A DNA stretch of 64,000 bases from an uncultured Bacteroidales bacterium (GTDB lineage: Bacteria > Bacteroidota > Bacteroidia > Bacteroidales > UBA1402), in assembly GCA_964575345.1 (NCBI GenBank), contig CAZNQD010000001.1, forward strand, positions 100,367 through 164,366, written 5' to 3'. How positions within the stretch are numbered: the stretch's first letter is position 1; each line of letters starts with the position of its first letter. The notes under the pieces are model-generated. The model was not told the DNA's origin, searched no databases, and saw only the letters and a program-made list of their open reading frames with translations. Positions 5,021-34,838 of the stretch are shown here, piece after piece. Made by a program: the position numbers and the translations under genes.

Positions 5021-6313
5021 ATGTATTTGCATGCTGCCCTGGAAACACTGAGCCGAAACGGAATTGAGAAATTACAGATGGAAAGGCTCGGAAAAACTCT
5101 GAATCATTGCCTGAACTCCCCATTTTACCGTAAACGTTTTGAGGAATACAATCTCAAACCCGGGGATATTAAAACCCTGGACGATCTAAGGAAAATCCCT
5201 TTTACCACCAAAACCGACCTTCGCGACAATTATCCTTTTGGAATGTCTGCAGTGCCTTTGGAGCAGACAGTACGTTTGCATTCCTCCAGCGGTACCACCG
5301 GCAATCCAACTGTTGTGTTGCATACTCAGCACGATTTGGACCAATGGGCGGAAGCCGTGGCGCGATGTCTTTACATGGTCGGTTTGCGAAAATCCGACGT
5401 TTTTCAGAATTCCTCCGGTTATGGCATGTTCACCGGAGGCCTGGGTTTCCAATACGGGGCAGAACGTCTGGGTATGCTCACCGTGCCGGCTGCCGCAGGT
5501 AATACCCTGAGGCAAATTAAATTCATTACCGATTTCGGAACTACCGCCCTGCATGCCATACCAAGTTACGCCAGCCGCCTGTATGAAGTAATGCAGCAAC
5601 AAGGCATTGATCCGCGCGATACGAAATTACGGACACTTCTCATCGGAGCCGAACCCCATTCCGAAGCCCAGCGTAAACGTATAGAAGAAATGCTTGGGGT
5701 CAAAGCATACAATAGCTTCGGGATGTCCGAAATGTGCGGTCCGGGGGTTGCTTTTGAATGTCCTGAACAAAACGGTATGCATATCTGGGAAGATTATTAT
5801 ATTGTTGAAATCATCAATCCGGACACACTCGAACCGGTGACCGAAGGAGAAATGGGAGAAATGGTGTTGACGACCATTAACAGAGAAGCCATGCCCTTGC
5901 TGCGTTACCGTACCCGTGACCTTACACGTATCCTGCCCGGAAAATGCCCCTGTGGCCGGAATCATATACGTTTGGATCGAATGAAAGGCCGGAGTGACGA
6001 CATGATTATTCTGAAAGGGGTCAACATTTTTCCCATCCAGGTAGAAACCATCTTGATGAAATTCAAAGAGTTAAGCTCTAATTATCTTATAGTAATCGAC
6101 ACTGTCAATAACAACGACGAAATGAGCGTCGAGGTAGAACTCGAAGAATTGTTTACCGACGACTATGCCAAATTGCAAAACCTTACCAGAGAGATTACCC
6201 GGCAACTCAAAGATGAACTGCTGGTAACTCCCAAAGTAAAGCTGGTCAAAAAAGACAGCCTCCCCAGAACTGAAGGTAAGGCTGTTCGTGTCAATGATTT
6301 GCGTAACCATTAA
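5021..6313 (+). CDS. paaK: phenylacetate-CoA ligase (adenylate-forming, PaaK family), copy 1
   Basis: SSGTTGNPTV AMP-binding loop. About 430 aa. Collinear with the second copy at 28328-29632. Confidence 0.85.
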   Translation: MYLHAALETLSRNGIEKLQMERLGKTLNHCLNSPFYRKRFEEYNLKPGDIKTLDDLRKIPFTTKTDLRDNYPFGMSAVPLEQTVRLHSSSGTTGNPTVVLHTQHDLDQWAEAVARCLYMVGLRKSDVFQNSSGYGMFTGGLGFQYGAERLGMLTVPAAAGNTLRQIKFITDFGTTALHAIPSYASRLYEVMQQQGIDPRDTKLRTLLIGAEPHSEAQRKRIEEMLGVKAYNSFGMSEMCGPGVAFECPEQNGMHIWEDYYIVEIINPDTLEPVTEGEMGEMVLTTINREAMPLLRYRTRDLTRILPGKCPCGRNHIRLDRMKGRSDDMIILKGVNIFPIQVETILMKFKELSSNYLIVIDTVNNNDEMSVEVELEELFTDDYAKLQNLTREITRQLKDELLVTPKVKLVKKDSLPRTEGKAVRVNDLRNH

Positions 6314-6323
6314 TCCCTACACC

Positions 6324-6752
6324 ATGACTATTCATCAGATTTCCATTTTCATCGAAAACAAGCTGGGCTCTCTCAACGAGATCCTGAACATTATCAAATC
6401 GGAAAGACTGCAGATCATAGCATCCACCGTTTCCGATACAGTGGAATATGGCATTTACAGGGTTATTACTCCCGAACCGCGCAAGGCTTGCCTGGCATTA
6501 AAGAGCCGTGGACTGGCCGTGAACCTGACCGAGGTTTTTGCCATCTCTTTAGCCAATACCGTCGGTACTGCTGCCGAGACCATCTCCTATTTTACCCTGG
6601 CAGGCATCAATATTGAATACATGTATTCCTTTTATCTCGAGAACAGAGGCATCCTGATTATGCGTACCAGCGATACAGCCAGAACCATCGAAGTAATCGC
6701 TGCACACAGGCTGAATTGCCTGACCGAAGAAGAATTATTACAATTTAATTAA
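6324..6752 (+). CDS. ACT-domain protein, copy 1
   Basis: MTIHQISIFIENKLGSLNEIL is an ACT-type start and parallels MMLIKQLSIFLENKTGRLTEV of copy 2. The track ORF begins at 6288 inside paaK, so I prefer the ATG at 6324. Confidence 0.75.
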   Translation: MTIHQISIFIENKLGSLNEILNIIKSERLQIIASTVSDTVEYGIYRVITPEPRKACLALKSRGLAVNLTEVFAISLANTVGTAAETISYFTLAGINIEYMYSFYLENRGILIMRTSDTARTIEVIAAHRLNCLTEEELLQFN

Positions 6753-6763
6753 TACTCGTATTT

Positions 6764-6958
6764 ATGTTTGGAATCTCAGACCCCGGCATTTGGTTAGCCT
6801 ATTTACTGGAAATACTTTGTCTTGTTTTCGGTGCCTGGTACGGAATAAAATACTGGAATCAGAACGACGAAACCACCTCCTCCCGGCAGACGGCAAATGA
6901 CGTCAAACCAAAAGCATCGAAATCAACAAAACTCGCTGACAAGCATAGTCATAACTAA
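6764..6958 (+). CDS. small single-TM accessory protein of a solute:sodium symporter
   Basis: 64 aa with one hydrophobic helix (GIWLAYLLEILCLVFGAWYGI). Lies immediately upstream of the SSS transporter. This resembles the 'symporter small accessory protein' class. Confidence 0.5.
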   Translation: MFGISDPGIWLAYLLEILCLVFGAWYGIKYWNQNDETTSSRQTANDVKPKASKSTKLADKHSHN

Positions 6959-6968
6959 ACTTAGCACT

Positions 6969-8534
6969 ATGAATTATTTTGTATTGGGATTAATCGTTCT
7001 ACTCTATATCTTTACGTTGGCGGCCATTAGCTGGTATGCCTACAAAAATACCAAAAATGCCAACGACTACCTGATAGGCGGCGGCAATATGAGCTCTGCG
7101 GTGATGGCTTTGTCGTACGGAGCTACTTTTATTTCGGCATCGGCCATAGTGGGCTTTGGCGGTGTTTCGGCTGCCTATGGTATGGGTATTCAATGGCTTT
7201 GCCTGTTAAACATTTTGGTTGGTGTAATTATTGCTTTTATCTTTTTCGGCAAAAAAACCCGCAAGCTGGGAGCAGAACTTCAGGCTAAAACCTTTCCCCA
7301 ACTCCTGGGCGGCTATTTCCAATCTAAATCCATACAAGTTATTGCCGCAACAGTGATAGTACTTGGTATGCCTTTGTACGCAGCCGTTGTTATGAAGGGC
7401 GGTGCGGTGTTTATTGAACAGATTTTCAATATCAATTACAATATAGCTCTGCTCATTTTTACTCTGATTACTGCATTGTATGTCATCAGCGGTGGCATGA
7501 AAGGTGTTATGTACACCTCGGCTTTTCAGGCTGTAGTTATGTTTGTTTGTATGTTTTTAATGTTGTTCGGCTTGTACAAATCGCTGGGCATGGGTTTTTC
7601 CGAAGCTAACAGAGCTCTGGATTCCATCGATAGCCTGGTTCCTTCCAATTTCGCCTCGCTGGGGCATCAGGGCTGGGCCAAGATGCCTGTATTGGGATCA
7701 CCTCAATGGTACACATTGGTCACTTCGCTTATTTTGGGCGTGGGCATCGGTTGCCTGGCTCAGCCTCAACTGGTGGTGCGTTTTTTGACGGTTCGCAGCA
7801 GTAAACAATTAAATCAGGGCATTTTTGTCGGATCCTTGTTTCTTCTAATTACGGTTGGGGTGGTCTATCATGCCGGAGCCTTATCCAATTTATTCTTTTT
7901 GAAACACAACGGGCAGGTGGCCACCGAATACATCCCGGACATGGACAAAATCATTCCGGCCTTCATTAATGCGGCCATGCCCAATTGGTTTACAGCCTTG
8001 TTTATGCTGTGTATTTTATCGGCCAGTATGTCAACGCTGAGTTCTCAGTTTCATGTCATGGGGACTTCGGCCGCTTCGGATATCTACGCTGACGTTGTAC
8101 GCAAAAAGGAGCGTCAAAGTATTACCCGCCTGGTCAAAATAGGTGTCCTGGTATCCATACTGATCAGTTATGTCATTTGCTATACCCTCAAAGAAGGCGT
8201 CATTGCACGGGGTACGTCTATTTTTATGGGCTTGTGCGCAGCTACTTTCCTTCCCTCCTATTTTTGTATGCTCTATTGGAAAAAAACAAGCAGTAAAGCA
8301 GTGTTGTGGAGTATGTTGGCAGGAGCCGGCGGCAGTGTGTTTGCCCTTTTGTTTCTGCATCAGAAAGAAGCGGCAGCCATAGGTCTGTGTCAGGCTGTTT
8401 TCGGCCGTCCGGTATTAATCGAAGCGTATCCCTGGCCGGTGATTGATCCTATCTTAGTTGCCCTGCCCTTGTCAATTGTGGTAATTGTCCTGCTTAGTTT
8501 ATTAAACCGCAAACAGGGGCAAAAATCTGCTTAA
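6969..8534 (+). CDS. sodium:solute symporter (SSS) family transporter
   Basis: Polytopic membrane protein of about 520 aa. The start is set at the ATG at 6969 (MNYFVLGLIVLL...), after the stop of the small ORF. Confidence 0.8.
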   Translation: MNYFVLGLIVLLYIFTLAAISWYAYKNTKNANDYLIGGGNMSSAVMALSYGATFISASAIVGFGGVSAAYGMGIQWLCLLNILVGVIIAFIFFGKKTRKLGAELQAKTFPQLLGGYFQSKSIQVIAATVIVLGMPLYAAVVMKGGAVFIEQIFNINYNIALLIFTLITALYVISGGMKGVMYTSAFQAVVMFVCMFLMLFGLYKSLGMGFSEANRALDSIDSLVPSNFASLGHQGWAKMPVLGSPQWYTLVTSLILGVGIGCLAQPQLVVRFLTVRSSKQLNQGIFVGSLFLLITVGVVYHAGALSNLFFLKHNGQVATEYIPDMDKIIPAFINAAMPNWFTALFMLCILSASMSTLSSQFHVMGTSAASDIYADVVRKKERQSITRLVKIGVLVSILISYVICYTLKEGVIARGTSIFMGLCAATFLPSYFCMLYWKKTSSKAVLWSMLAGAGGSVFALLFLHQKEAAAIGLCQAVFGRPVLIEAYPWPVIDPILVALPLSIVVIVLLSLLNRKQGQKSA

Positions 8535-29632: not shown

Positions 29633-29803
29633 ATTGAAAAAATAAAGGAAAGAGGCTATTCCTGTAAAAAATATGTAATTTTATTCAATACCGGCCAGGA
29701 GTCAGTCTTTTGGCCAATAATCTTGCGAAGGAACAATTTTTTTTTGTATTCTGAAAATAATAGAGTCTGCACTGAAGGATTTCGCAAAGCTTTTAAAAAT
29801 GTC

Positions 29804-29811
29804 TACTTTTG
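29804..29811 (+). promoter_or_regulatory. -7 box candidate (TACTTTTG) for uvrB
   Basis: Exact TAnnTTTG, 20 nt upstream of the ATG at 29831. It lies inside the longer track ORF, which argues for the shorter start. Confidence 0.5.
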
Positions 29812-29830
29812 CAGATTATTTTCTGCTCTC

Positions 29831-31843
29831 ATGTTTAAACTTGTTTCAGCTTATCAACCCACCGGAGACCAGCCCGAAGCCATACAATTACTTTCAGAAG
29901 GCATTCAGCAGGGACTTTCTCACCAAACACTGCTTGGAGTGACGGGATCGGGTAAAACTTTTACAGTGGCCAATGTGGTGAAGCAAGTGCAACGTCCTAC
30001 CCTGGTGTTAAGCCACAACAAAACACTGGCCGCTCAATTGTACGGTGAATTCAAAAGCTTTTTCCCTGAAAATGCGGTTGAATACTTTGTGTCTTACTAC
30101 GATTACTACCAACCCGAAGCCTATTTGCCTCACAGCGATACTTACATAGAAAAGGACCTGGCCATTAACGATGAAATTGAGAAACTGAGGTTGTCGGCCA
30201 CTTCTTCCTTGTTATCGGGCCGTAGGGATGTATTGGTGGTTTCCTCGGTGTCCTGCTTGTTTGGCATGGGCAACCCCATAGATTTCCATAACAACATCCA
30301 ACGTGTTCAAAAAGGTCAGTCACTGAGCCGCAATGTTTTTTTGCGCAGTCTGGTCGACAGTCTTTATTCAAGAAATGATGTAGGCCCCGGACGCGGCAAT
30401 TTCCGGGTGAAAGGCGATAATGTAGACATTTTTCTGGCATATTCCGATATGGTGATCCGGGTCAGTTTTTGGGGAGAAGAAATCGAAGCCATAGAGCAAA
30501 TCGACTACCTGACAGGCAGGAGACTGGCCGAATTTGATCGCTTCGATATCTATCCTGCCAATCTGTTTGTCACCACCAAAGAAAGGCAGGCTCAGGCCAT
30601 AAGGCAGATAGAACTTGATCTGGCGGCTCAGGTGGCCTTTTTCCAGTCCATCGACAAAGCATACGAAGCCAGGCGCCTGCAGGAAAGGGTTAGTTACGAT
30701 ATGGAGATGATCAGGGAGCTGGGGCATTGCTCGGGAATTGAGAATTATTCCAGGTATTTTGACGGCCGCGAGCCGGGAATGCGTCCCTTCTGCCTCCTGG
30801 ATTTCTTTCCCGAAGATTTTTTAATGGTCATTGACGAGAGTCATGTAACGGTACCCCAAATCAGAGCAATGTGGGGAGGCGATCATGCCCGCAAACAAAA
30901 TCTGGTTGAATACGGTTTCAGGCTTCCGGCCGCATTGGATAACCGGCCTCTGCGTTTCGATGAATTTGAAGCTATGACTTCTCAGGTTATTTACGTCAGT
31001 GCCACCCCGGCCGATTATGAGCTGGAGAAATCCGGCGGACTTATCGTAGAGCAACTGATTCGTCCCACAGGGCTGTTGGATCCTGTTATGGTAGTACGTC
31101 CCAGTAAGCATCAGGTGGATGATTTAATGGAAGAAATCCGCCAGAGAGTGGAAAACAACGAACGAACTCTGGTGACAACACTCACCAAGCGAATGGCTGA
31201 AGAATTATCGGCTTACCTCAAGCGGCAGGGTGTACTTTGTGAATACATCCATTCCGACGTGGAAACCCTGGAAAGGGTAAACATTATGGACAAGCTGCGC
31301 AAAGGGCTTTTTGACGTACTGATCGGGGTTAATTTATTACGCGAAGGTCTGGATTTACCCGAAGTATCTTTAGTAGCCATTCTGGATGCAGACAAGGAAG
31401 GATTCCTGCGCAATCACCGTTCTTTGACTCAGACAGCCGGCCGGGCTGCCCGTCACATTAACGGTAAAGTAATTTTATACGCAGATAAAATCACCGAAAG
31501 TATGCGGCTTACCCTGGAGGAAACCCAACGGCGAAGAAATAAACAAGAAGAATACAACAGACTCAACAACATCACGCCCACGGCTATCCGTAAAGACAAT
31601 TATTCCGTGCTGGTCAACAGAGCAGCCGAGGATCAGAGCAAGACAAAAGCCTATATTGAACCGGAAGAAATTAATATTCTGACAGATCCTGTGATTCGCT
31701 ACATGGGCCGTCCTCAATTGGAAAAGTTGATAGAAAACACCCGTAAATTAATGTACACAGCCTCCGAAAAAATGGAATTTCTGGAGGCTGCGCAATACCG
31801 AGATGAGCTTTATCGGCTGGAGCAAAGGCTTAAAGAGTTCTAA
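29831..31843 (+). CDS. uvrB: excinuclease ABC subunit B
   Basis: MFKLVSAYQPTGDQPEAI start. GVTGSGKTFT Walker A. DESHVT motif. C-terminal UVR domain (AAQYRDELYRLE). Confidence 0.95.
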   Translation: MFKLVSAYQPTGDQPEAIQLLSEGIQQGLSHQTLLGVTGSGKTFTVANVVKQVQRPTLVLSHNKTLAAQLYGEFKSFFPENAVEYFVSYYDYYQPEAYLPHSDTYIEKDLAINDEIEKLRLSATSSLLSGRRDVLVVSSVSCLFGMGNPIDFHNNIQRVQKGQSLSRNVFLRSLVDSLYSRNDVGPGRGNFRVKGDNVDIFLAYSDMVIRVSFWGEEIEAIEQIDYLTGRRLAEFDRFDIYPANLFVTTKERQAQAIRQIELDLAAQVAFFQSIDKAYEARRLQERVSYDMEMIRELGHCSGIENYSRYFDGREPGMRPFCLLDFFPEDFLMVIDESHVTVPQIRAMWGGDHARKQNLVEYGFRLPAALDNRPLRFDEFEAMTSQVIYVSATPADYELEKSGGLIVEQLIRPTGLLDPVMVVRPSKHQVDDLMEEIRQRVENNERTLVTTLTKRMAEELSAYLKRQGVLCEYIHSDVETLERVNIMDKLRKGLFDVLIGVNLLREGLDLPEVSLVAILDADKEGFLRNHRSLTQTAGRAARHINGKVILYADKITESMRLTLEETQRRRNKQEEYNRLNNITPTAIRKDNYSVLVNRAAEDQSKTKAYIEPEEINILTDPVIRYMGRPQLEKLIENTRKLMYTASEKMEFLEAAQYRDELYRLEQRLKEF

Positions 31844-33297
31844 AACTTAACTCCCAGGCTACATACTATGTTGGCTGTGTTGGTGTTTATATTTGCATAC
31901 TCACCTGCTCCGTCCCAATTGTAATAGGGATAAAAATGTTCCGTTCTGAATTGCTCAACGAAAGCTATGTCAAAAAAGAAGGCTCCTGTCCGATAGCCAA
32001 AACCTAAGGAAGCAGTATGTGCATCTTTTTCCATGAAATATTGTGGAGCCGAGGATGGAGTGTAAATAACCGTGTTGTTTCTTTCGATATGATCGGCCAC
32101 CGGTGATTGATAGAAGGCATAGCCGGCTCTGAAACTGAATTGTTTGTCGAGGCGTATTTCTGTTCCAACTCGCAGGTTGTATCCCAATCTGAAGAATTTA
32201 TTGATATCTTCGTTCACATCTGTATAAGGATAGCCACTACTGTTGCGCATACGGATTTTTCGGTAATCGACTATTTCGTAATCTATACTGAGCAGGCCGA
32301 CTTGTCCAAGTTGAGCAGCTGCACTGATAACGAAAAGTTGTGGAGTTTCCAGTTGATAATAAACAGGATCCGGCTCTTCTTCGGATATATAAATGGTCCT
32401 GTCTTCTACAAGACCGTCATCGTCCGGCATACCAAAAGAGCTCAGGTAGGCATCGTAATCGTCTCTGAGCGCGTAGTAAGTGGGTGTGTGATAAGAAAAG
32501 CCCAGTCTAAATTCGGGTATGGGGCGAAGGATCAGGCCGATTTTTCCATTAATACCGGTTCCTGAGGTTTTTAGCCAATTCCATAACTCCATACTGCCGC
32601 CTTCGTCAAAGAATTCTTTGTAGTAAGTGTCTATTTCATAATTGACCGATTGCACACCCAGAGAGGCACCAAAATACAGTAAATGGTTGTAATTGAATCC
32701 CATACTAAAATTCCATTCGCCAATACTCCCTTTTTCGATGGCGTATTGTTCATTGTCCAATAATTCGCCCTCTTGCAAAACAGGATTGTAATTATCGTCC
32801 AACAGATACGTTTCCCAGGCCATGTTCTCCAGGGTACTGTAAGGGCTAAGGTTATCCAGCAATGAAACGGGTCGGTCAAGGCCAATGACATTCACATTGC
32901 GATTATAGTTTTTCAGCCGGTTGTAAGTAACGCCGAAGTTGTAATTGGCCACTTTGGAATCGTCGTAGGTCCGATATGAACCTACCACACCAAAGTTATT
33001 AACGCCAAAACCCACTTTGGAATCACTGCTCCCGGAACCATTGAAATCGGAATTCAGACCGGCAATGCTCAAAACGGGGCTGAAACTAATTTCAGAACTT
33101 CGGTAGACAGCTATCCCCGCAGGATTGATACCTAAGGCGGTCAAATCACCTCCCAGGGCGCCAAAAGCATTGGCCATACCGATGGAGCGAGCTGTCCCGC
33201 TAACTTCAGATTGTGAATACCTTAATGCATCAAAGGCTTCCTGACCTACCAAGTTGAATGCTGAAAACAGAAAAACTGCAAGAATTGTATTTTTCAT
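31840..33297 (-). CDS. FadL/OmpP1/PorV-like outer-membrane beta-barrel protein
   Basis: Signal peptide. N-terminal segment GTARSIGMANAFGALGGDLTALGINPAGIA is typical of the FadL-like hatch region. C-terminal ...CSLGVKF aromatic ending. Confidence 0.6.
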   Translation of the reverse strand: MKNTILAVFLFSAFNLVGQEAFDALRYSQSEVSGTARSIGMANAFGALGGDLTALGINPAGIAVYRSSEISFSPVLSIAGLNSDFNGSGSSDSKVGFGVNNFGVVGSYRTYDDSKVANYNFGVTYNRLKNYNRNVNVIGLDRPVSLLDNLSPYSTLENMAWETYLLDDNYNPVLQEGELLDNEQYAIEKGSIGEWNFSMGFNYNHLLYFGASLGVQSVNYEIDTYYKEFFDEGGSMELWNWLKTSGTGINGKIGLILRPIPEFRLGFSYHTPTYYALRDDYDAYLSSFGMPDDDGLVEDRTIYISEEEPDPVYYQLETPQLFVISAAAQLGQVGLLSIDYEIVDYRKIRMRNSSGYPYTDVNEDINKFFRLGYNLRVGTEIRLDKQFSFRAGYAFYQSPVADHIERNNTVIYTPSSAPQYFMEKDAHTASLGFGYRTGAFFFDIAFVEQFRTEHFYPYYNWDGAGEYANINTNTANIVCSLGVKF

Positions 33298-33308
33298 TTC
33301 TTAATTAT

Positions 33309-34781
33309 TTAGCGACGACCGGAACTGCCTGATGAGCTACGCCCGGCTGAACCGGAGCTGCTGCCAGAAGAACTCCTGCCGGAAGAACTGCTGCCGGAAG
33401 AATAGGAGCTGCTGCTACTGTTGCTGGGAGTTGAATATGAAGAAGAGGAAGAGGATGAGCTTGATGTAGACACGCTGCTTCTTGTATTACTGCTGCTTGA
33501 ACTGCTTCTTATACTGCTGTTTGTGTTGCTGCTACCGGAACTGCTTCTGACGCCGGTAGAGCTGCTTCTAACACTACTGCTTGAACTTCTGGCAGTTGAA
33601 GGACTTGTCGTTGCAGCACCCGATCTGGAAGACGAAGGTGCGCTTACTGCACTGCTTCGGCTGCTGTTCGCAGAGGAAGAACTTCTGGTTGTAGATTGCC
33701 TGGTACTGGTACCCGAATAACGATTGTCGGTGGTGGAGTTTCTGTAGGTAGCATTGTTGTCGGAAGATCCTGCAGAATTAATTGTTGAGCGGGTGCCGGT
33801 GCCGGTGGACCGGGCAGTGGCTGTTGTGCTTCTGGAAGTACTGGTGCCTCTGGTAAAATTGTCCCCACGGGCATTGGTTGTTCTTGAAGCCAGAGTTTCG
33901 GTACGGCTAAAGTCATTGTAAACGGCCGAAGAACGGCTGTCCGTTCTGCCGGCTACACCTCCGCTGCCGGCTGCCTGCCTGCTGCTGACCGGAATTCCTC
34001 CCCTTGAATTAATCTCATTTCGCGATGCCAGTGCTGTACGGGTGTTAACCGGTTTTCTGGGTGTTTTGATGTAAGAAGGATAACCCCAGGCTGTGTAGGG
34101 AGAGTAATAATTGTAGGGGTGATAACCGTAATAACAATAGTCCCAACCCCAGGAATAGTACCAGGGGCTGTACCAGCTGTAATACCAGGGATCGTAAAAA
34201 CCGTAATACCACCCGTTATAACGCCAGGGGGAATAATATCCGTAATAACCATGGTAGCCCCAGCCGTAATAATAAGGTCTGTAAAAGTCGTCAAAATACC
34301 AGGGGCTCATCCAGGGATTCCAGGAATAATCGTCCATATAATAAATATCCACATCAGCACCTTCTTCAATATAAATATTTACATAACCGTCTTCGGTAAT
34401 GTGCGTTGTGAATTTATCGTTGTGAAAGCGTCTTATTCTTTCGCTGTATTGAAAGTCTTCGTATTCTTCACGGCTTATCAGCACTGAATCGTCCAATAAT
34501 TCCTCTTCTTCGTAATTTTCCGCCTGATTGTTGTTTTTGTATGAAGGCCTGCGGTTGTACACGTCAACATCCATGGATGATTCATTTGTAGCGTAATCAA
34601 CTTCGTTTTCTGTTGCTTTATTTGTCACCAGAGAAGACTGATCCTGAGTGCTTTCGGCCTTAATAAGAGTCGACTCGAATTTAGGATGGTAGTACAGGTC
34701 GTCGTCGTACACTTTTTGTGCACCAAGTGCCCAGGGGATAGCCAAGGCAAGTATAAACAGGTAATTGATTTTGGTTTTCAT
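33309..34781 (-). CDS. secreted low-complexity protein (acidic zone, Tyr/Trp-rich zone, Ser/Thr/Arg-rich tail), function unknown
   Basis: Signal peptide MKTKINYLFILALAIPWALGA. It has its own -7 box and sits 11 nt upstream of the barrel gene. The strong 3-nt periodicity of the Ser-codon-rich DNA supports the frame. Confidence 0.65.
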   Translation of the reverse strand: MKTKINYLFILALAIPWALGAQKVYDDDLYYHPKFESTLIKAESTQDQSSLVTNKATENEVDYATNESSMDVDVYNRRPSYKNNNQAENYEEEELLDDSVLISREEYEDFQYSERIRRFHNDKFTTHITEDGYVNIYIEEGADVDIYYMDDYSWNPWMSPWYFDDFYRPYYYGWGYHGYYGYYSPWRYNGWYYGFYDPWYYSWYSPWYYSWGWDYCYYGYHPYNYYSPYTAWGYPSYIKTPRKPVNTRTALASRNEINSRGGIPVSSRQAAGSGGVAGRTDSRSSAVYNDFSRTETLASRTTNARGDNFTRGTSTSRSTTATARSTGTGTRSTINSAGSSDNNATYRNSTTDNRYSGTSTRQSTTRSSSSANSSRSSAVSAPSSSRSGAATTSPSTARSSSSSVRSSSTGVRSSSGSSNTNSSIRSSSSSSNTRSSVSTSSSSSSSSSYSTPSNSSSSSYSSGSSSSGRSSSGSSSGSAGRSSSGSSGRR

Positions 34782-34830
34782 ATCAGTACTCCCTTCTGTT
34801 TTGGTGAAAACAAGATAAACATGTTTACTA

Positions 34831-34838
34831 CAAAGATA
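34831..34838 (-). promoter_or_regulatory. -7 box candidate (TATCTTTG) for the low-complexity protein / barrel unit
   Basis: Exact TAnnTTTG on the minus strand, 50 nt upstream of the ATG at 34781. Confidence 0.5.

Follow-up and report, generated by a model that had tools for sequence, protein, structure and literature searches.

The outer-membrane protein B1R-S of Bacteroides fragilis (BF9343_1563, Q5LEV6; also called OmpS or OMP-S) is a 62-kDa barrel of the FadL family with a hatch and an extracellular domain, and it is the receptor of the MACPF toxin BSAP-1 (PMC12853789). Here we describe a gene pair that encodes a barrel of this family and an exported low-complexity protein, which we call the partner. 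The pair lies in a 64,000-nt stretch of contig CAZNQD010000001.1 (assembly GCA_964575345.1, positions 100,367 to 164,366) from an uncultured Bacteroidales bacterium; this whole stretch is the window, and positions are counted from its first nucleotide. Deletion of BF9343_1563 abolishes killing by BSAP-1 and causes a competitive colonization defect, and deletion of the resistant allele causes a slight growth defect and a colonization defect (PMC4999547). Toxin producers and sensitive strains differ over a stretch that takes in the gene for the toxin, that for the barrel, and the 3' end of the next gene upstream (PMC4999547). The upstream protein is exported through a signal peptidase I (SPI) signal and alone confers no sensitivity; its gene was named (BF638R_1644 / HMPREF1080_01555) but not described (PMC4999547). 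We place HMPREF1080_01555 and BF638R_1644 directly upstream of the barrel gene, because the published reverse primer for HMPREF1080_01555 is the reverse complement of the barrel-gene start.

BSAP-1 binds through its C-terminal domain of 38 residues, which is both necessary and sufficient. The domain has six Arg, one Lys, and no acidic residue, ends in R366..Y369-R370-R371-P372, and is seen as an extended chain within a groove of negative charge in the extracellular loops. Charge reversal of the three terminal Arg residues markedly reduces killing, and replacing every charged residue of the domain with alanine eliminates both receptor binding and killing (for all of these results, PMC12853789; 10.64898/2026.08.05.742979). 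Binding is allele specific even within B. fragilis (PMC4999547; 10.64898/2026.08.05.742979). The OmpS/B1R publications treat the barrel alone and predict small-molecule transport, and neither PMC12853789 nor 10.64898/2026.08.05.742979 discusses the upstream gene, an endogenous ligand, or mimicry. Other FadL-like barrels of Bacteroidota with a documented protein partner hold a terminal segment of a surface protein, as in BamG-BamH and in PorV with its cargo (PMC12578637; PMC12611786). A BamG2/BamH2 paralogue pair (Bt1785/Bt1786) lies in a putative operon.

RESULTS

The barrel belongs to an obligate two-gene unit

The partner gene (33309..34781, minus strand, from the open reading frame [ORF] call) encodes an exported protein of 490 aa that belongs to a new family and is predicted to be disordered. 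After a spacer of 11 nt (ATAATTAAGAA, 33298..33308, minus strand, read directly), it is followed by the gene for a FadL-family 14-stranded outer-membrane barrel of 485 aa (31840..33297, minus strand; ORF call, Pfam, and model). Cotranscription of the two genes across this spacer is probable.

The arrangement recurs widely. Three close Bacteroidales metagenome-assembled genomes (MAGs) and one Flavobacteriales MAG, whose barrel is 32% identical, all have a gene of the same layout upstream of the barrel, and the same holds for Ancylomarina longa and three metagenome contigs. From the partner side, we searched with a degenerate DNA pattern that encodes the motif DVDEYNRR and obtained 120 loci, nearly all from Bacteroidales, including Bacteroides clarus, B. 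faecis, B. graminisolvens, Phocaeicola, Parabacteroides distasonis, Alistipes, Prevotella, and Muribaculaceae. The barrel was the next gene on the same strand in 73/73 partner loci with downstream room, at a median gap of about 58 nt. The partner was found upstream of the barrel in 74 of 80 further loci searched from the barrel side, among them Prolixibacteraceae, Marinifilum, Labilibaculum, Mariniphaga, Draconibacterium, Dysgonomonas, and a Flavobacteriales MAG; the remaining 6 were incomplete or marginally below thresholds. Clustering of all neighboring ORFs yielded no third conserved gene, the next commonest being prmA (54 loci) and proS (33), and the recurrent neighbors of the pair are prmA, proS, and uvrB. 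An initial annotation of the window had described a dedicated barrel in a self-contained two-gene unit, and synteny across Bacteroidota bears this out. The pair is obligate, coinherited, and old, and it extends across Bacteroidales and some Flavobacteriales.

Partner genes of the typical Bacteroidales kind also occur on contigs labeled Acidaminococcaceae, Bulleidia, Pseudoflavonifractor (a 1.78-Mb scaffold), and Flexilinea (L053, L082, L084, L121). The barrel follows the partner in L082, L084, and L121, and the L053 contig stops right past the partner. These assemblies are probably mis-binned or mislabeled.

The window barrel is related to the BSAP-1 receptor

We traced the published receptor through the tryptic peptides of Q5LEV6 listed in Table S1 of its description (PMC12853789). 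Nineteen of the 25 peptides are colinear on a B. clarus barrel that lies behind a partner gene (75% identity, 345 residues), and the first peptide matches at 29/29 residues. A DNA pattern from one peptide led to a 556-aa B. hominis barrel with nearly all of the peptides. In the B. fragilis group, the barrel of cluster P0280 (94% identical) follows, at a distance of 34 nt, the gene for a typical 442-aa member of the partner family. This member has AQ|SNNDDLYFVPSK, RDVDEYNRRY, DDYEYAERIIRFRNPRF, GWGWGWGW..GGYWGGYW..HHHH, and a Ser/Thr/Arg tail ending in GGGSSRGRR. BLASTP aligned the window barrel with the B. fragilis-type barrel over its full length and colinearly, at 28 to 34% identity (E = 2e-33), and the head of the window partner aligns with the B. 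fragilis-group partner. Judged by these alignments, the window barrel is a distant orthologue of BF9343_1563 (OmpS/B1R-S).

OmpS/OMP-S/B1R-S and the resistant allele OmpR/B1R-R (BF638R_1645) share with the window pair the barrel family, the synteny, the FadL fold with its hatch, and the acidic loops. However, the Bacteroides OmpS/B1R proteins are about 70 aa longer than the window barrel and have a larger extracellular domain. BSAP-1 binding would not be expected of the window barrel, which lacks the long loops. No toxin gene was seen beside the pair in the window (relatives UBA1402 and others), unlike in B. fragilis producers, and a MACPF-signature regular expression run on about 1,500 neighboring ORFs found nothing convincing beside the pair.

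On the B. fragilis-group contig L214, a 525-aa lipoprotein gene with no Pfam match (5942-7519, plus strand) lies between the barrel gene and a cytidine deaminase gene. This is the site where BSAP-1 sits in strain 638R, and B. hominis (L213) has no such gene there. A further strain-specific gene, for a surface protein or a toxin, is one possibility.

The window partner is a block polyampholyte

All partner features given here are on the minus strand. The protein starts with a Sec/SPI signal peptide, MKTKINYLFILALAIPWALGA (34719..34781, from sequence and alignment), which ends in ALGA|Q and is followed by Gln22. The head (residues 22 to 146) has a net charge of -19. The next 91 residues (147 to 237; 34071..34343, by composition count) form a Tyr/Trp/Gly/Pro zone with 32 Tyr and 12 Trp (48% Tyr plus Trp), 9 Pro, 9 Gly, and 8 Ser and with no Leu, Ile, or Val. 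The remainder (residues 238 to 490; 33312..34070, also by composition count) is a polycationic Ser/Thr/Arg/Gly/Asn tail of net charge +24, with 95 Ser, 33 Thr, 29 Arg, 22 Gly, 19 Ala, and 16 Asn. Its final acidic residue is residue 352. The C terminus, RSSSGSSGRR (33312..33341), is identical in the relatives L001 and L002; in the family it is a Gly-rich run followed by RR, RRR, RGR, or RRH. The length, zones, and Tyr and Trp counts in the initial annotation were exact on recount, as was its placement of the last acidic residue near 352. It had also called the Arg residues regularly spaced, and the spread of Arg-Arg gaps in the window tail is indeed below that of shuffles, only 3% of which are as low.

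AlphaFold2, run on the window partner with a 31-sequence alignment, gave a predicted local distance difference test score (pLDDT) of 50.6, with secondary structure confined to the signal peptide and a pLDDT of 36 to 47 in the aromatic zone. Taken alone, the partner is thus predicted to be unfolded, and its charges are arranged as a block polyampholyte, with an acidic head, an uncharged Tyr/Trp/Gly/Pro middle, and an evenly spaced poly-Arg tail.

The window partner had no credible match in Pfam or NCBIfam and no type IX secretion system (T9SS) C-terminal domain in those scans. No Pfam family was found in 31 members of its family, and a sequence search with the partner profile returned no relative in the PDB. 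The earlier view that the protein has no T9SS C-terminal domain and belongs to no characterized family thus stands. The A-L-G-A|Q cleavage context has no Cys and no lipobox. The exact partner sequence is absent from a 15-billion-protein collection in which the window barrel is present.

The partner family has a constant layout, a variable length, and a constrained sequence

An exhaustive HMMER search with partner residues 1 to 260 found 151 representative clusters, and the same layout is present in about 155 genomic loci. The source names of the homologues are all "hypothetical protein." The family order is A-x-A|Q, DDIYY, a variable Lys/Thr/Glu-rich linker, RDVDEYNRR, usually D-[ST]-aliphatic, Y-x-ERI-x-RFHNP, ..VNIY.., the aromatic zone, the tail, and a Gly-rich end in RR. 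In the window, the acidic-aromatic motif reads DDDLYY (34689..34706), with D27 and D28 invariant and Y30 at least 90% conserved. The next motif is DVDVYNRR (34548..34571; N76 and R77 at least 90% conserved), and the third is YSERIRRFHN (34419..34448; family Y-[TAS]-ERI-x-RFHNP), in which R115 is invariant and F119 at least 90% conserved.

Gln22 is invariant in the family alignment, and A-x-A|Q occurs in at least 174 members. A Gln at +1 of the mature protein fits the Bacteroidetes "Q-rule" (Gln at +1, pyroglutamate) that Bochtler et al. reportedly described in 2018. The DD motif lies 0 to 6 residues beyond the Gln in SPI-type members. A D-[ST]-aliphatic triplet is present no more than 80 aa beyond DVDEYNRR in 85/98 members. 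In the window this conserved DT/DS-plus-aliphatic column reads D-S-V (34482..34490). It is a predicted site, matching the sequon D-[ST]-[AILVMT] that Fletcher et al. are said to have reported in 2009 for general O-glycosylation in Bacteroidetes.

The family aromatic zone has a median length of 78 aa and is 21% Tyr, 16% Trp, 16% Gly, 10% Pro, and 0.1% Lys. YDPWY, WGWG, GYYG, and WGPSW recur in it, and Pro, present once per 4 to 10 residues, has D, S, Y, or G before it and W or Y after it. The tail is 105 to 284 aa long, with 12.9% Arg versus 0.3% Lys and 2.4% Asp plus Glu. This roughly 40-fold preference for Arg over Lys is not found in the head. The net charge of the tail is positive in 104/104 members (median, +18), and that of the head is negative in 98%. 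Leu, Ile, Val, and Met make up only about 4.6% of the aromatic zone and tail. The even Arg spacing is general: it exceeds that of shuffles in 105/105 family tails, with a gap mode of 6 to 8 residues. At least two Arg are among the last five residues in 95/98 complete genomic members, and the exact ending RR is found in 92/150 representatives. The composition, enriched in Trp, Tyr, His, Asn, and Arg and depleted of Lys and aliphatics, would suit a carbohydrate-binding surface and also a Tyr/Arg "sticker" domain.

We compared the window partner with two relatives whose barrels are 90 to 91% identical. The ratio of nonsynonymous to synonymous substitution rates (dN/dS) was 0.02 to 0.03 in the aromatic zone, 0.15 to 0.22 in the head, and 0.25 to 0.29 in the tail; that of the barrel, 0.08 to 0.10, was above that of the aromatic zone. 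The aromatic-zone dS is noisy, because Tyr and Trp codons give few synonymous sites. At the protein level, this zone is 92 to 93% identical to close relatives. The slippage-like variation in tail length that had been suspected was observed: at about 90% identity, close relatives differ at 23 to 30 indel positions, all in the Ser-rich tail, and the last ten residues are identical. Tandem Repeats Finder reported short repeats of 12 to 15 nt in the tail DNA. This substitution pattern argues that the partner is a real, constrained gene under purifying selection.

About 25 orthologues, from Prolixibacteraceae, Marinifilum-type genera, and Flavobacteriales, have a lipobox instead of the SPI site. 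The statement that the partner has no lipobox therefore holds for the window protein but not for the family. In the lipobox type, the Cys-to-DD spacing is 11 residues in 20 cases. Surface-exposed Bacteroidota lipoproteins are recognized by at least two acidic residues within six positions of the Cys (PMC12578637; PMC12045153). Two acidic residues in +1 to +6 were found in 0/29 lipobox orthologues, so their N terminus should be membrane proximal and not exported by the lipoprotein route. The lipobox pattern is the only topological hint in the partner sequences, and it would point to that side.

Some members depart from the common pattern. His runs (HHHH) end the aromatic zone in many Bacteroides-type members (e.g., P0123, P0145, P0152, and the L214 partner), and a few members contain several Cys (P0227); metal binding or redox chemistry is possible for such zones. 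In MAG AS10tlH2TH_44 (L003, near 4950), the partner orthologue has an in-frame stop at the K123 codon (..RRFHND*FTTHI..) in an otherwise intact gene, which is either a sequencing error or a recent pseudogene. Gene callers at times skip the partner and call antisense or out-of-frame ORFs (L007/L008, 4490-4948, minus strand; L211, 289-795, minus strand), and contigs often break off inside the gene (L210-L212, L215). The family is therefore undercounted in protein databases, because gene callers miss it and contigs end within it.

The barrel has a FadL fold and a predicted acidic crown

The window barrel matches the Pfam family Toluene_X (PF03349) with 32.8 bits, above the cutoff of 29.7 (E = 3.4e-8), which places it in the FadL/OmpP1/TodX family. 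Most barrel homologues carry a precomputed PF03349 match. NCBIfam PorV_fam gave a weak, N-terminal match of 25.8 bits (cutoff, 90), and PorV2 gave 13.3 (cutoff, 325). In the initial annotation the barrel was FadL/OmpP1/PorV-like; the FadL part of this holds and the PorV part does not. Neither PorP_SprF in the barrel nor a T9SS sorting domain in the partner was found at E ≤ 1 in Pfam and NCBIfam.

AlphaFold2, with a 34-sequence alignment, modeled the barrel with a pLDDT of 89.1 and a predicted template-modeling score of 0.85, as 14 strands with alternating long and short connections. The N-terminal hatch (residues 19 to 66; 33100..33243, minus strand, from alignment and model) is helical or coiled, with pLDDT above 90 and 13 invariant positions. 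Across the 34 sequences, its NPAG motif (33115-33126) is invariant at N58, P59, and G61 and conserved to at least 90% at A60. NPA is the FadL hatch motif, and FadL NPA mutants are among the Foldseek matches of the model. The barrel ends in a C-terminal beta-signal, ...NIVCSLGVKF (31843..31872, minus strand), in which F485 is invariant. Aromatic C-terminal beta-signals are described for Bacteroidota (10.1101/2025.01.31.636011).

The nearest structures by Foldseek were the Pseudomonas aeruginosa FadL homologue 3DWO, Escherichia coli FadL, BamG of three Bacteroidota β-barrel assembly machinery (BAM) complexes, and TodX/TbuX/CymD. Matches to FadL, TodX, and TbuX had E values of 1e-24 to 1e-17 and template-modeling (TM) scores of 0.5 to 0.64. 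By sequence, the matches were confined to 3DWO, TbuX, TodX, and, marginally, CymD (E = 0.27). We searched with the window barrel itself, with its family profile, and with the orthologue from B. clarus, and no BamG chain (9HJ3, 9HIV, 9HJM, 9N2D) was matched. We rejected the assignment of the barrel to BamG, since none of these three queries matched and the likeness is at the level of fold only. On the sequence and family-profile results, we assign the barrel to the FadL family and not to BamG, PorV, or PorP.

We took the long connections of the model as extracellular and calculated the loop charges. The extracellular loops have a net charge of -18 in the window and a family median of -13; L2 is negative in 97%, and the periplasmic turns are at about -2. 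The predicted outer crown of the barrel is thus strongly acidic and would complement the positive tail of the partner.

Promoter and neighboring ORFs

A promoter box, TATCTTTG (TAnnTTTG, a Bacteroidota-type -7 element; 34831..34838, minus strand, read directly), lies 50 nt upstream of the partner ATG. The box and its flank, GAAAAAAGTATCTTTGTA, are kept in the relatives L001-L003 and in L007, whose barrel is 46% identical. TAnnTTTG occurs no more than 150 nt upstream of the partner in 78/98 family loci. The last 4 nt of the barrel ORF are shared with the convergent uvrB ORF (29723..31843). Direct reading confirmed the box, the 11-nt gap, and this overlap as first reported.

As mechanically called, the uvrB ORF (29723-31843, plus strand) has a TTG start and encodes 706 aa. 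Its relatives are mostly called at 669 to 671 aa, from MFKLVS..; longer versions are L211 (699 aa called) and the L001 mechanical ORF (699 aa from TTG). The true start is probably an internal ATG. The low-complexity DNA of the window also yields mechanical ORFs at 33421-33720 (plus strand), 33953-34294 (minus strand), and 34119-34487 (plus strand), which are Leu/Glu-rich or Val/Ile/Thr-rich.

Comparison with other described systems

Like the window pair, BamG-BamH has a FadL-like 14-stranded barrel, and BamG holds the conserved N terminus of BamH. BamG and the window barrel are similar in fold (9HIV_F, E = 6e-22; 9N2D_B; 9HJM_F) with no detectable sequence similarity. BamG sits in the BAM complex, whereas we saw no sign of BamA association for the window barrel. 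BamH is a DUF4270-type folded surface lipoprotein, and the window partner, which is disordered by prediction, lacks an export signal, and has no Pfam match, is not assigned to it. PorV, PorQ, and PorP/SprF are also FadL-like barrels that bind the terminal domain of surface proteins, and the sprB-sprF gene order is alike. However, the window barrel scores under their family cutoffs, its partner has no C-terminal sorting domain, and the pair is found in Bacteroides. FadL, TodX, TbuX, and 3DWO are the best profile and fold matches of the window barrel and share its NPA hatch motif, at 12 to 14% identity and TM scores of 0.5 to 0.6. The FadL/TodX/TbuX channels have no dedicated protein partner and are set among catabolic genes.

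The PEX13 YG domain, FG nucleoporins, and FUS resemble the partner in aromatic/Gly-rich disorder and in Arg over Lys. The likeness is one of composition only, and the partner is bacterial and located in the envelope. A YG-hydrogel analogy has been drawn for the Tyr/Gly/Asn-rich EL3 loop of Bacteroidota BamA (10.1101/2025.01.31.636011). Curli (CsgA/CsgG) and Fap (FapC/FapF) follow a similar logic, in that an outer-membrane protein is dedicated to one secreted, aggregation-prone protein. They have no sequence or fold relation to the window pair and use another barrel class, and the window core is Pro-rich and without accessory genes. The lipobox Cys plus at least two acidic residues that mark Bacteroidota surface lipoproteins are found neither in the window partner nor in the lipobox orthologues. 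MAFF (BT2268/2269) was considered as a related system and rejected, as it is an unrelated SusC/D pair. In Flavobacterium johnsoniae, the lipoprotein Fjoh_4940 and the adjacent FadL homologue Fjoh_4941 rise on TamL depletion, and a functional link was suspected (PMC12045153). These two may be a Flavobacterium version of the pair, of the lipobox type.

DISCUSSION

We tentatively favor, while holding it at somewhat short of an even chance, a model in which the partner and barrel form one outer-membrane complex and the barrel is the socket, and possibly the conduit, for the disordered partner. The N-terminal motifs of the partner would dock it on the barrel. The polycationic tail would reach the cell surface, where it would lie against the acidic crown of the partner's own barrel and against neighboring anionic lipopolysaccharide (LPS) or capsule, and the Tyr/Trp zone would give cohesive or glycan-binding contacts. 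In this scenario, BSAP-1 may enter by imitating the tail of the partner. Candidate outputs are surface organization and envelope robustness, or ligand capture for the channel. For one orthologue, surface exposure, relevance to fitness, and binding of an Arg-rich extended peptide on the outside have been demonstrated.

Several points weigh against this model. We infer the contact between partner and barrel, and the loop topology of the barrel is drawn from a predicted model. Acidic extracellular loops are common among outer-membrane proteins. We recognized no route for the partner across the outer membrane: there is no T9SS C-terminal domain in Pfam or NCBIfam, and none of the 29 lipobox orthologues has the acidic signal for lipoprotein export. 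The hatch is classical, with an invariant NPAG, and may therefore plug the barrel lumen. The resistant allele OMP-R is reported to have no acidic patch of the kind that BSAP-1 uses (10.64898/2026.08.05.742979), so that groove is not conserved in every member. BSAP-1 also binds when OMP-S is produced by itself in other Bacteroides species (PMC12853789; PMC4999547), and the groove is therefore not permanently occupied.

The only export route seen is the barrel, the hatch is classical, and the lipobox variants are without a signal; a periplasmic accessory role is therefore a serious rival, although a doubtful one. The partner would stay inside, docked under the barrel or lipid-anchored in the inner leaflet, and its aromatic zone and tail would bind peptidoglycan or anionic polymers, tethering or regulating the barrel. 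It has no export signal beyond Sec, the NPAG of the hatch is intact, and the lipoprotein orthologues (about 25) combine a fixed 11-residue Cys-to-DDIY spacer with the lack of an acidic pair in +1 to +6. The scarcity of aliphatics (about 4.6% Leu, Ile, Val, and Met) and the charged C terminus would spare a disordered chain in the periplasm, given the preferences of E. coli DegP and Prc. However, the charge that complements the tail is on the predicted extracellular loops and not on the periplasmic turns, and the Arg-rich extended peptide that is the sole experimentally known ligand of the barrel family binds on the outer side. For tethering, a lipid anchor would be enough, yet the barrel is always kept. 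We consider it rather unlikely that the pair serves mainly in ligand capture, with the barrel importing hydrophobic or amphipathic molecules, which is what the BSAP-1 papers suppose, and the partner acting, like SusD or BtuG, as an aromatic, Arg-rich "fly-paper" for anionic amphiphiles or aromatics. Toluene_X scores above its gathering threshold, the family profile matches the P. aeruginosa FadL homologue, TbuX, and TodX and not BamG or PorV, the NPA hatch motif is invariant, and surface binding proteins are habitual companions of outer-membrane transporters in Bacteroidota (PMC12578637). Yet there are no fatty-acid or aromatic catabolism genes near the pair, where prmA, proS, and uvrB recur instead, and AlphaFold2 predicts no folded binding domain in the partner. 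Ligand capture can coexist with the docked complex and with either topology.

The initial annotation had likened the pair to fiber or amyloid export systems. That the barrel secretes the partner, which then polymerizes outside through its aromatic core, now seems improbable to us, and nothing we found speaks positively for the analogy. The low-complexity core is very strongly constrained, the barrel is dedicated, the unit is self-contained, and a disordered chain could be threaded. Against these stand a Pro every 4 to 10 residues of the core and an AlphaFold2 prediction without β structure there. No Curlin, CsgG, or Fap-type Pfam match was found, and no nucleator or chaperone genes are conserved beside the pair. 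Some orthologues are lipid-anchored, and we know of no protein pore formed by a 14-stranded barrel with a hatch. A docked or anchored complex would fit these observations better. The gene order, cargo and then FadL-like barrel, recalls sprB-sprF, and PorV_fam gives its weak N-terminal match of 25.8 bits, as if the partner were T9SS cargo with a PorP/SprF-like anchor downstream, as for proteins with type-B C-terminal domains. That match is far under the cutoff of 90, and Por_Secre_tail, the type-B domain, and PorP_SprF were all absent at E ≤ 1. B. faecis (L100), B. clarus (L028), and the B. fragilis group (L214) all have the pair, whereas PorT, a component of the T9SS, is reported to be missing from the proteomes of the two Bacteroides species named in PMC5445135, B. 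thetaiotaomicron and B. fragilis. Because the family tests failed and the pair occurs in Bacteroides while PorT is reported absent from those two species, T9SS dependence is contradicted, and we regard it as highly improbable. The chance that the low-complexity ORF is no gene and is a by-product of repetitive DNA upstream of the barrel is smaller still and close to negligible. Callers at times skip the ORF for antisense ORFs (L007, L211), and the exact protein is missing from the 15-billion-protein collection. Nevertheless, the frame, signal peptide, motifs, and C terminus are conserved over at least 150 loci of different families, dN/dS is 0.02 to 0.29, and the promoter box is conserved.

Returning to the docked complex, its parts can be joined in a broader proposal that we find unlikely when taken as a whole. 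A FadL-type barrel would be both anchor and translocation path for a wholly disordered polypeptide, giving T9SS-independent display. The displayed chains would form a cohesive Tyr/Trp-Arg layer on the acidic crown and LPS, a counterpart of YG/FG-type phases, and the Arg-rich domain of BSAP-1 would mimic the tail. If this is true, mimicry would explain why one strain-variable region of B. fragilis holds the toxin gene along with the barrel gene and the partner gene's 3' end.

The barrel is not anonymous: it is a distant member of a family that has one experimentally studied representative, the published BSAP-1 receptor OmpS/B1R-S of Bacteroides. We found no description of the partner family, the obligate pairing, the family-wide charge complementarity, or the mimicry hypothesis in the literature searched. 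The B. fragilis member of the barrel family decides sensitivity to BSAP-1 and is needed for gut colonization, and the papers on it treat a lone channel. In each lineage that we sampled, among them Bacteroides, Prevotella, Parabacteroides, Alistipes, Muribaculaceae, and Prolixibacteraceae, the barrel proves to be one half of an obligate two-gene unit. The other half, the partner, is conserved and extreme in its predicted disorder, and annotation pipelines frequently overlook it. The pairing gives a testable handle on the physiological role of the receptor, on BSAP-1 recognition, and on strain variation at the locus. If the tail is surface exposed, the pair would represent a new form of protein display in Bacteroidota that uses neither the T9SS nor lipoprotein export.

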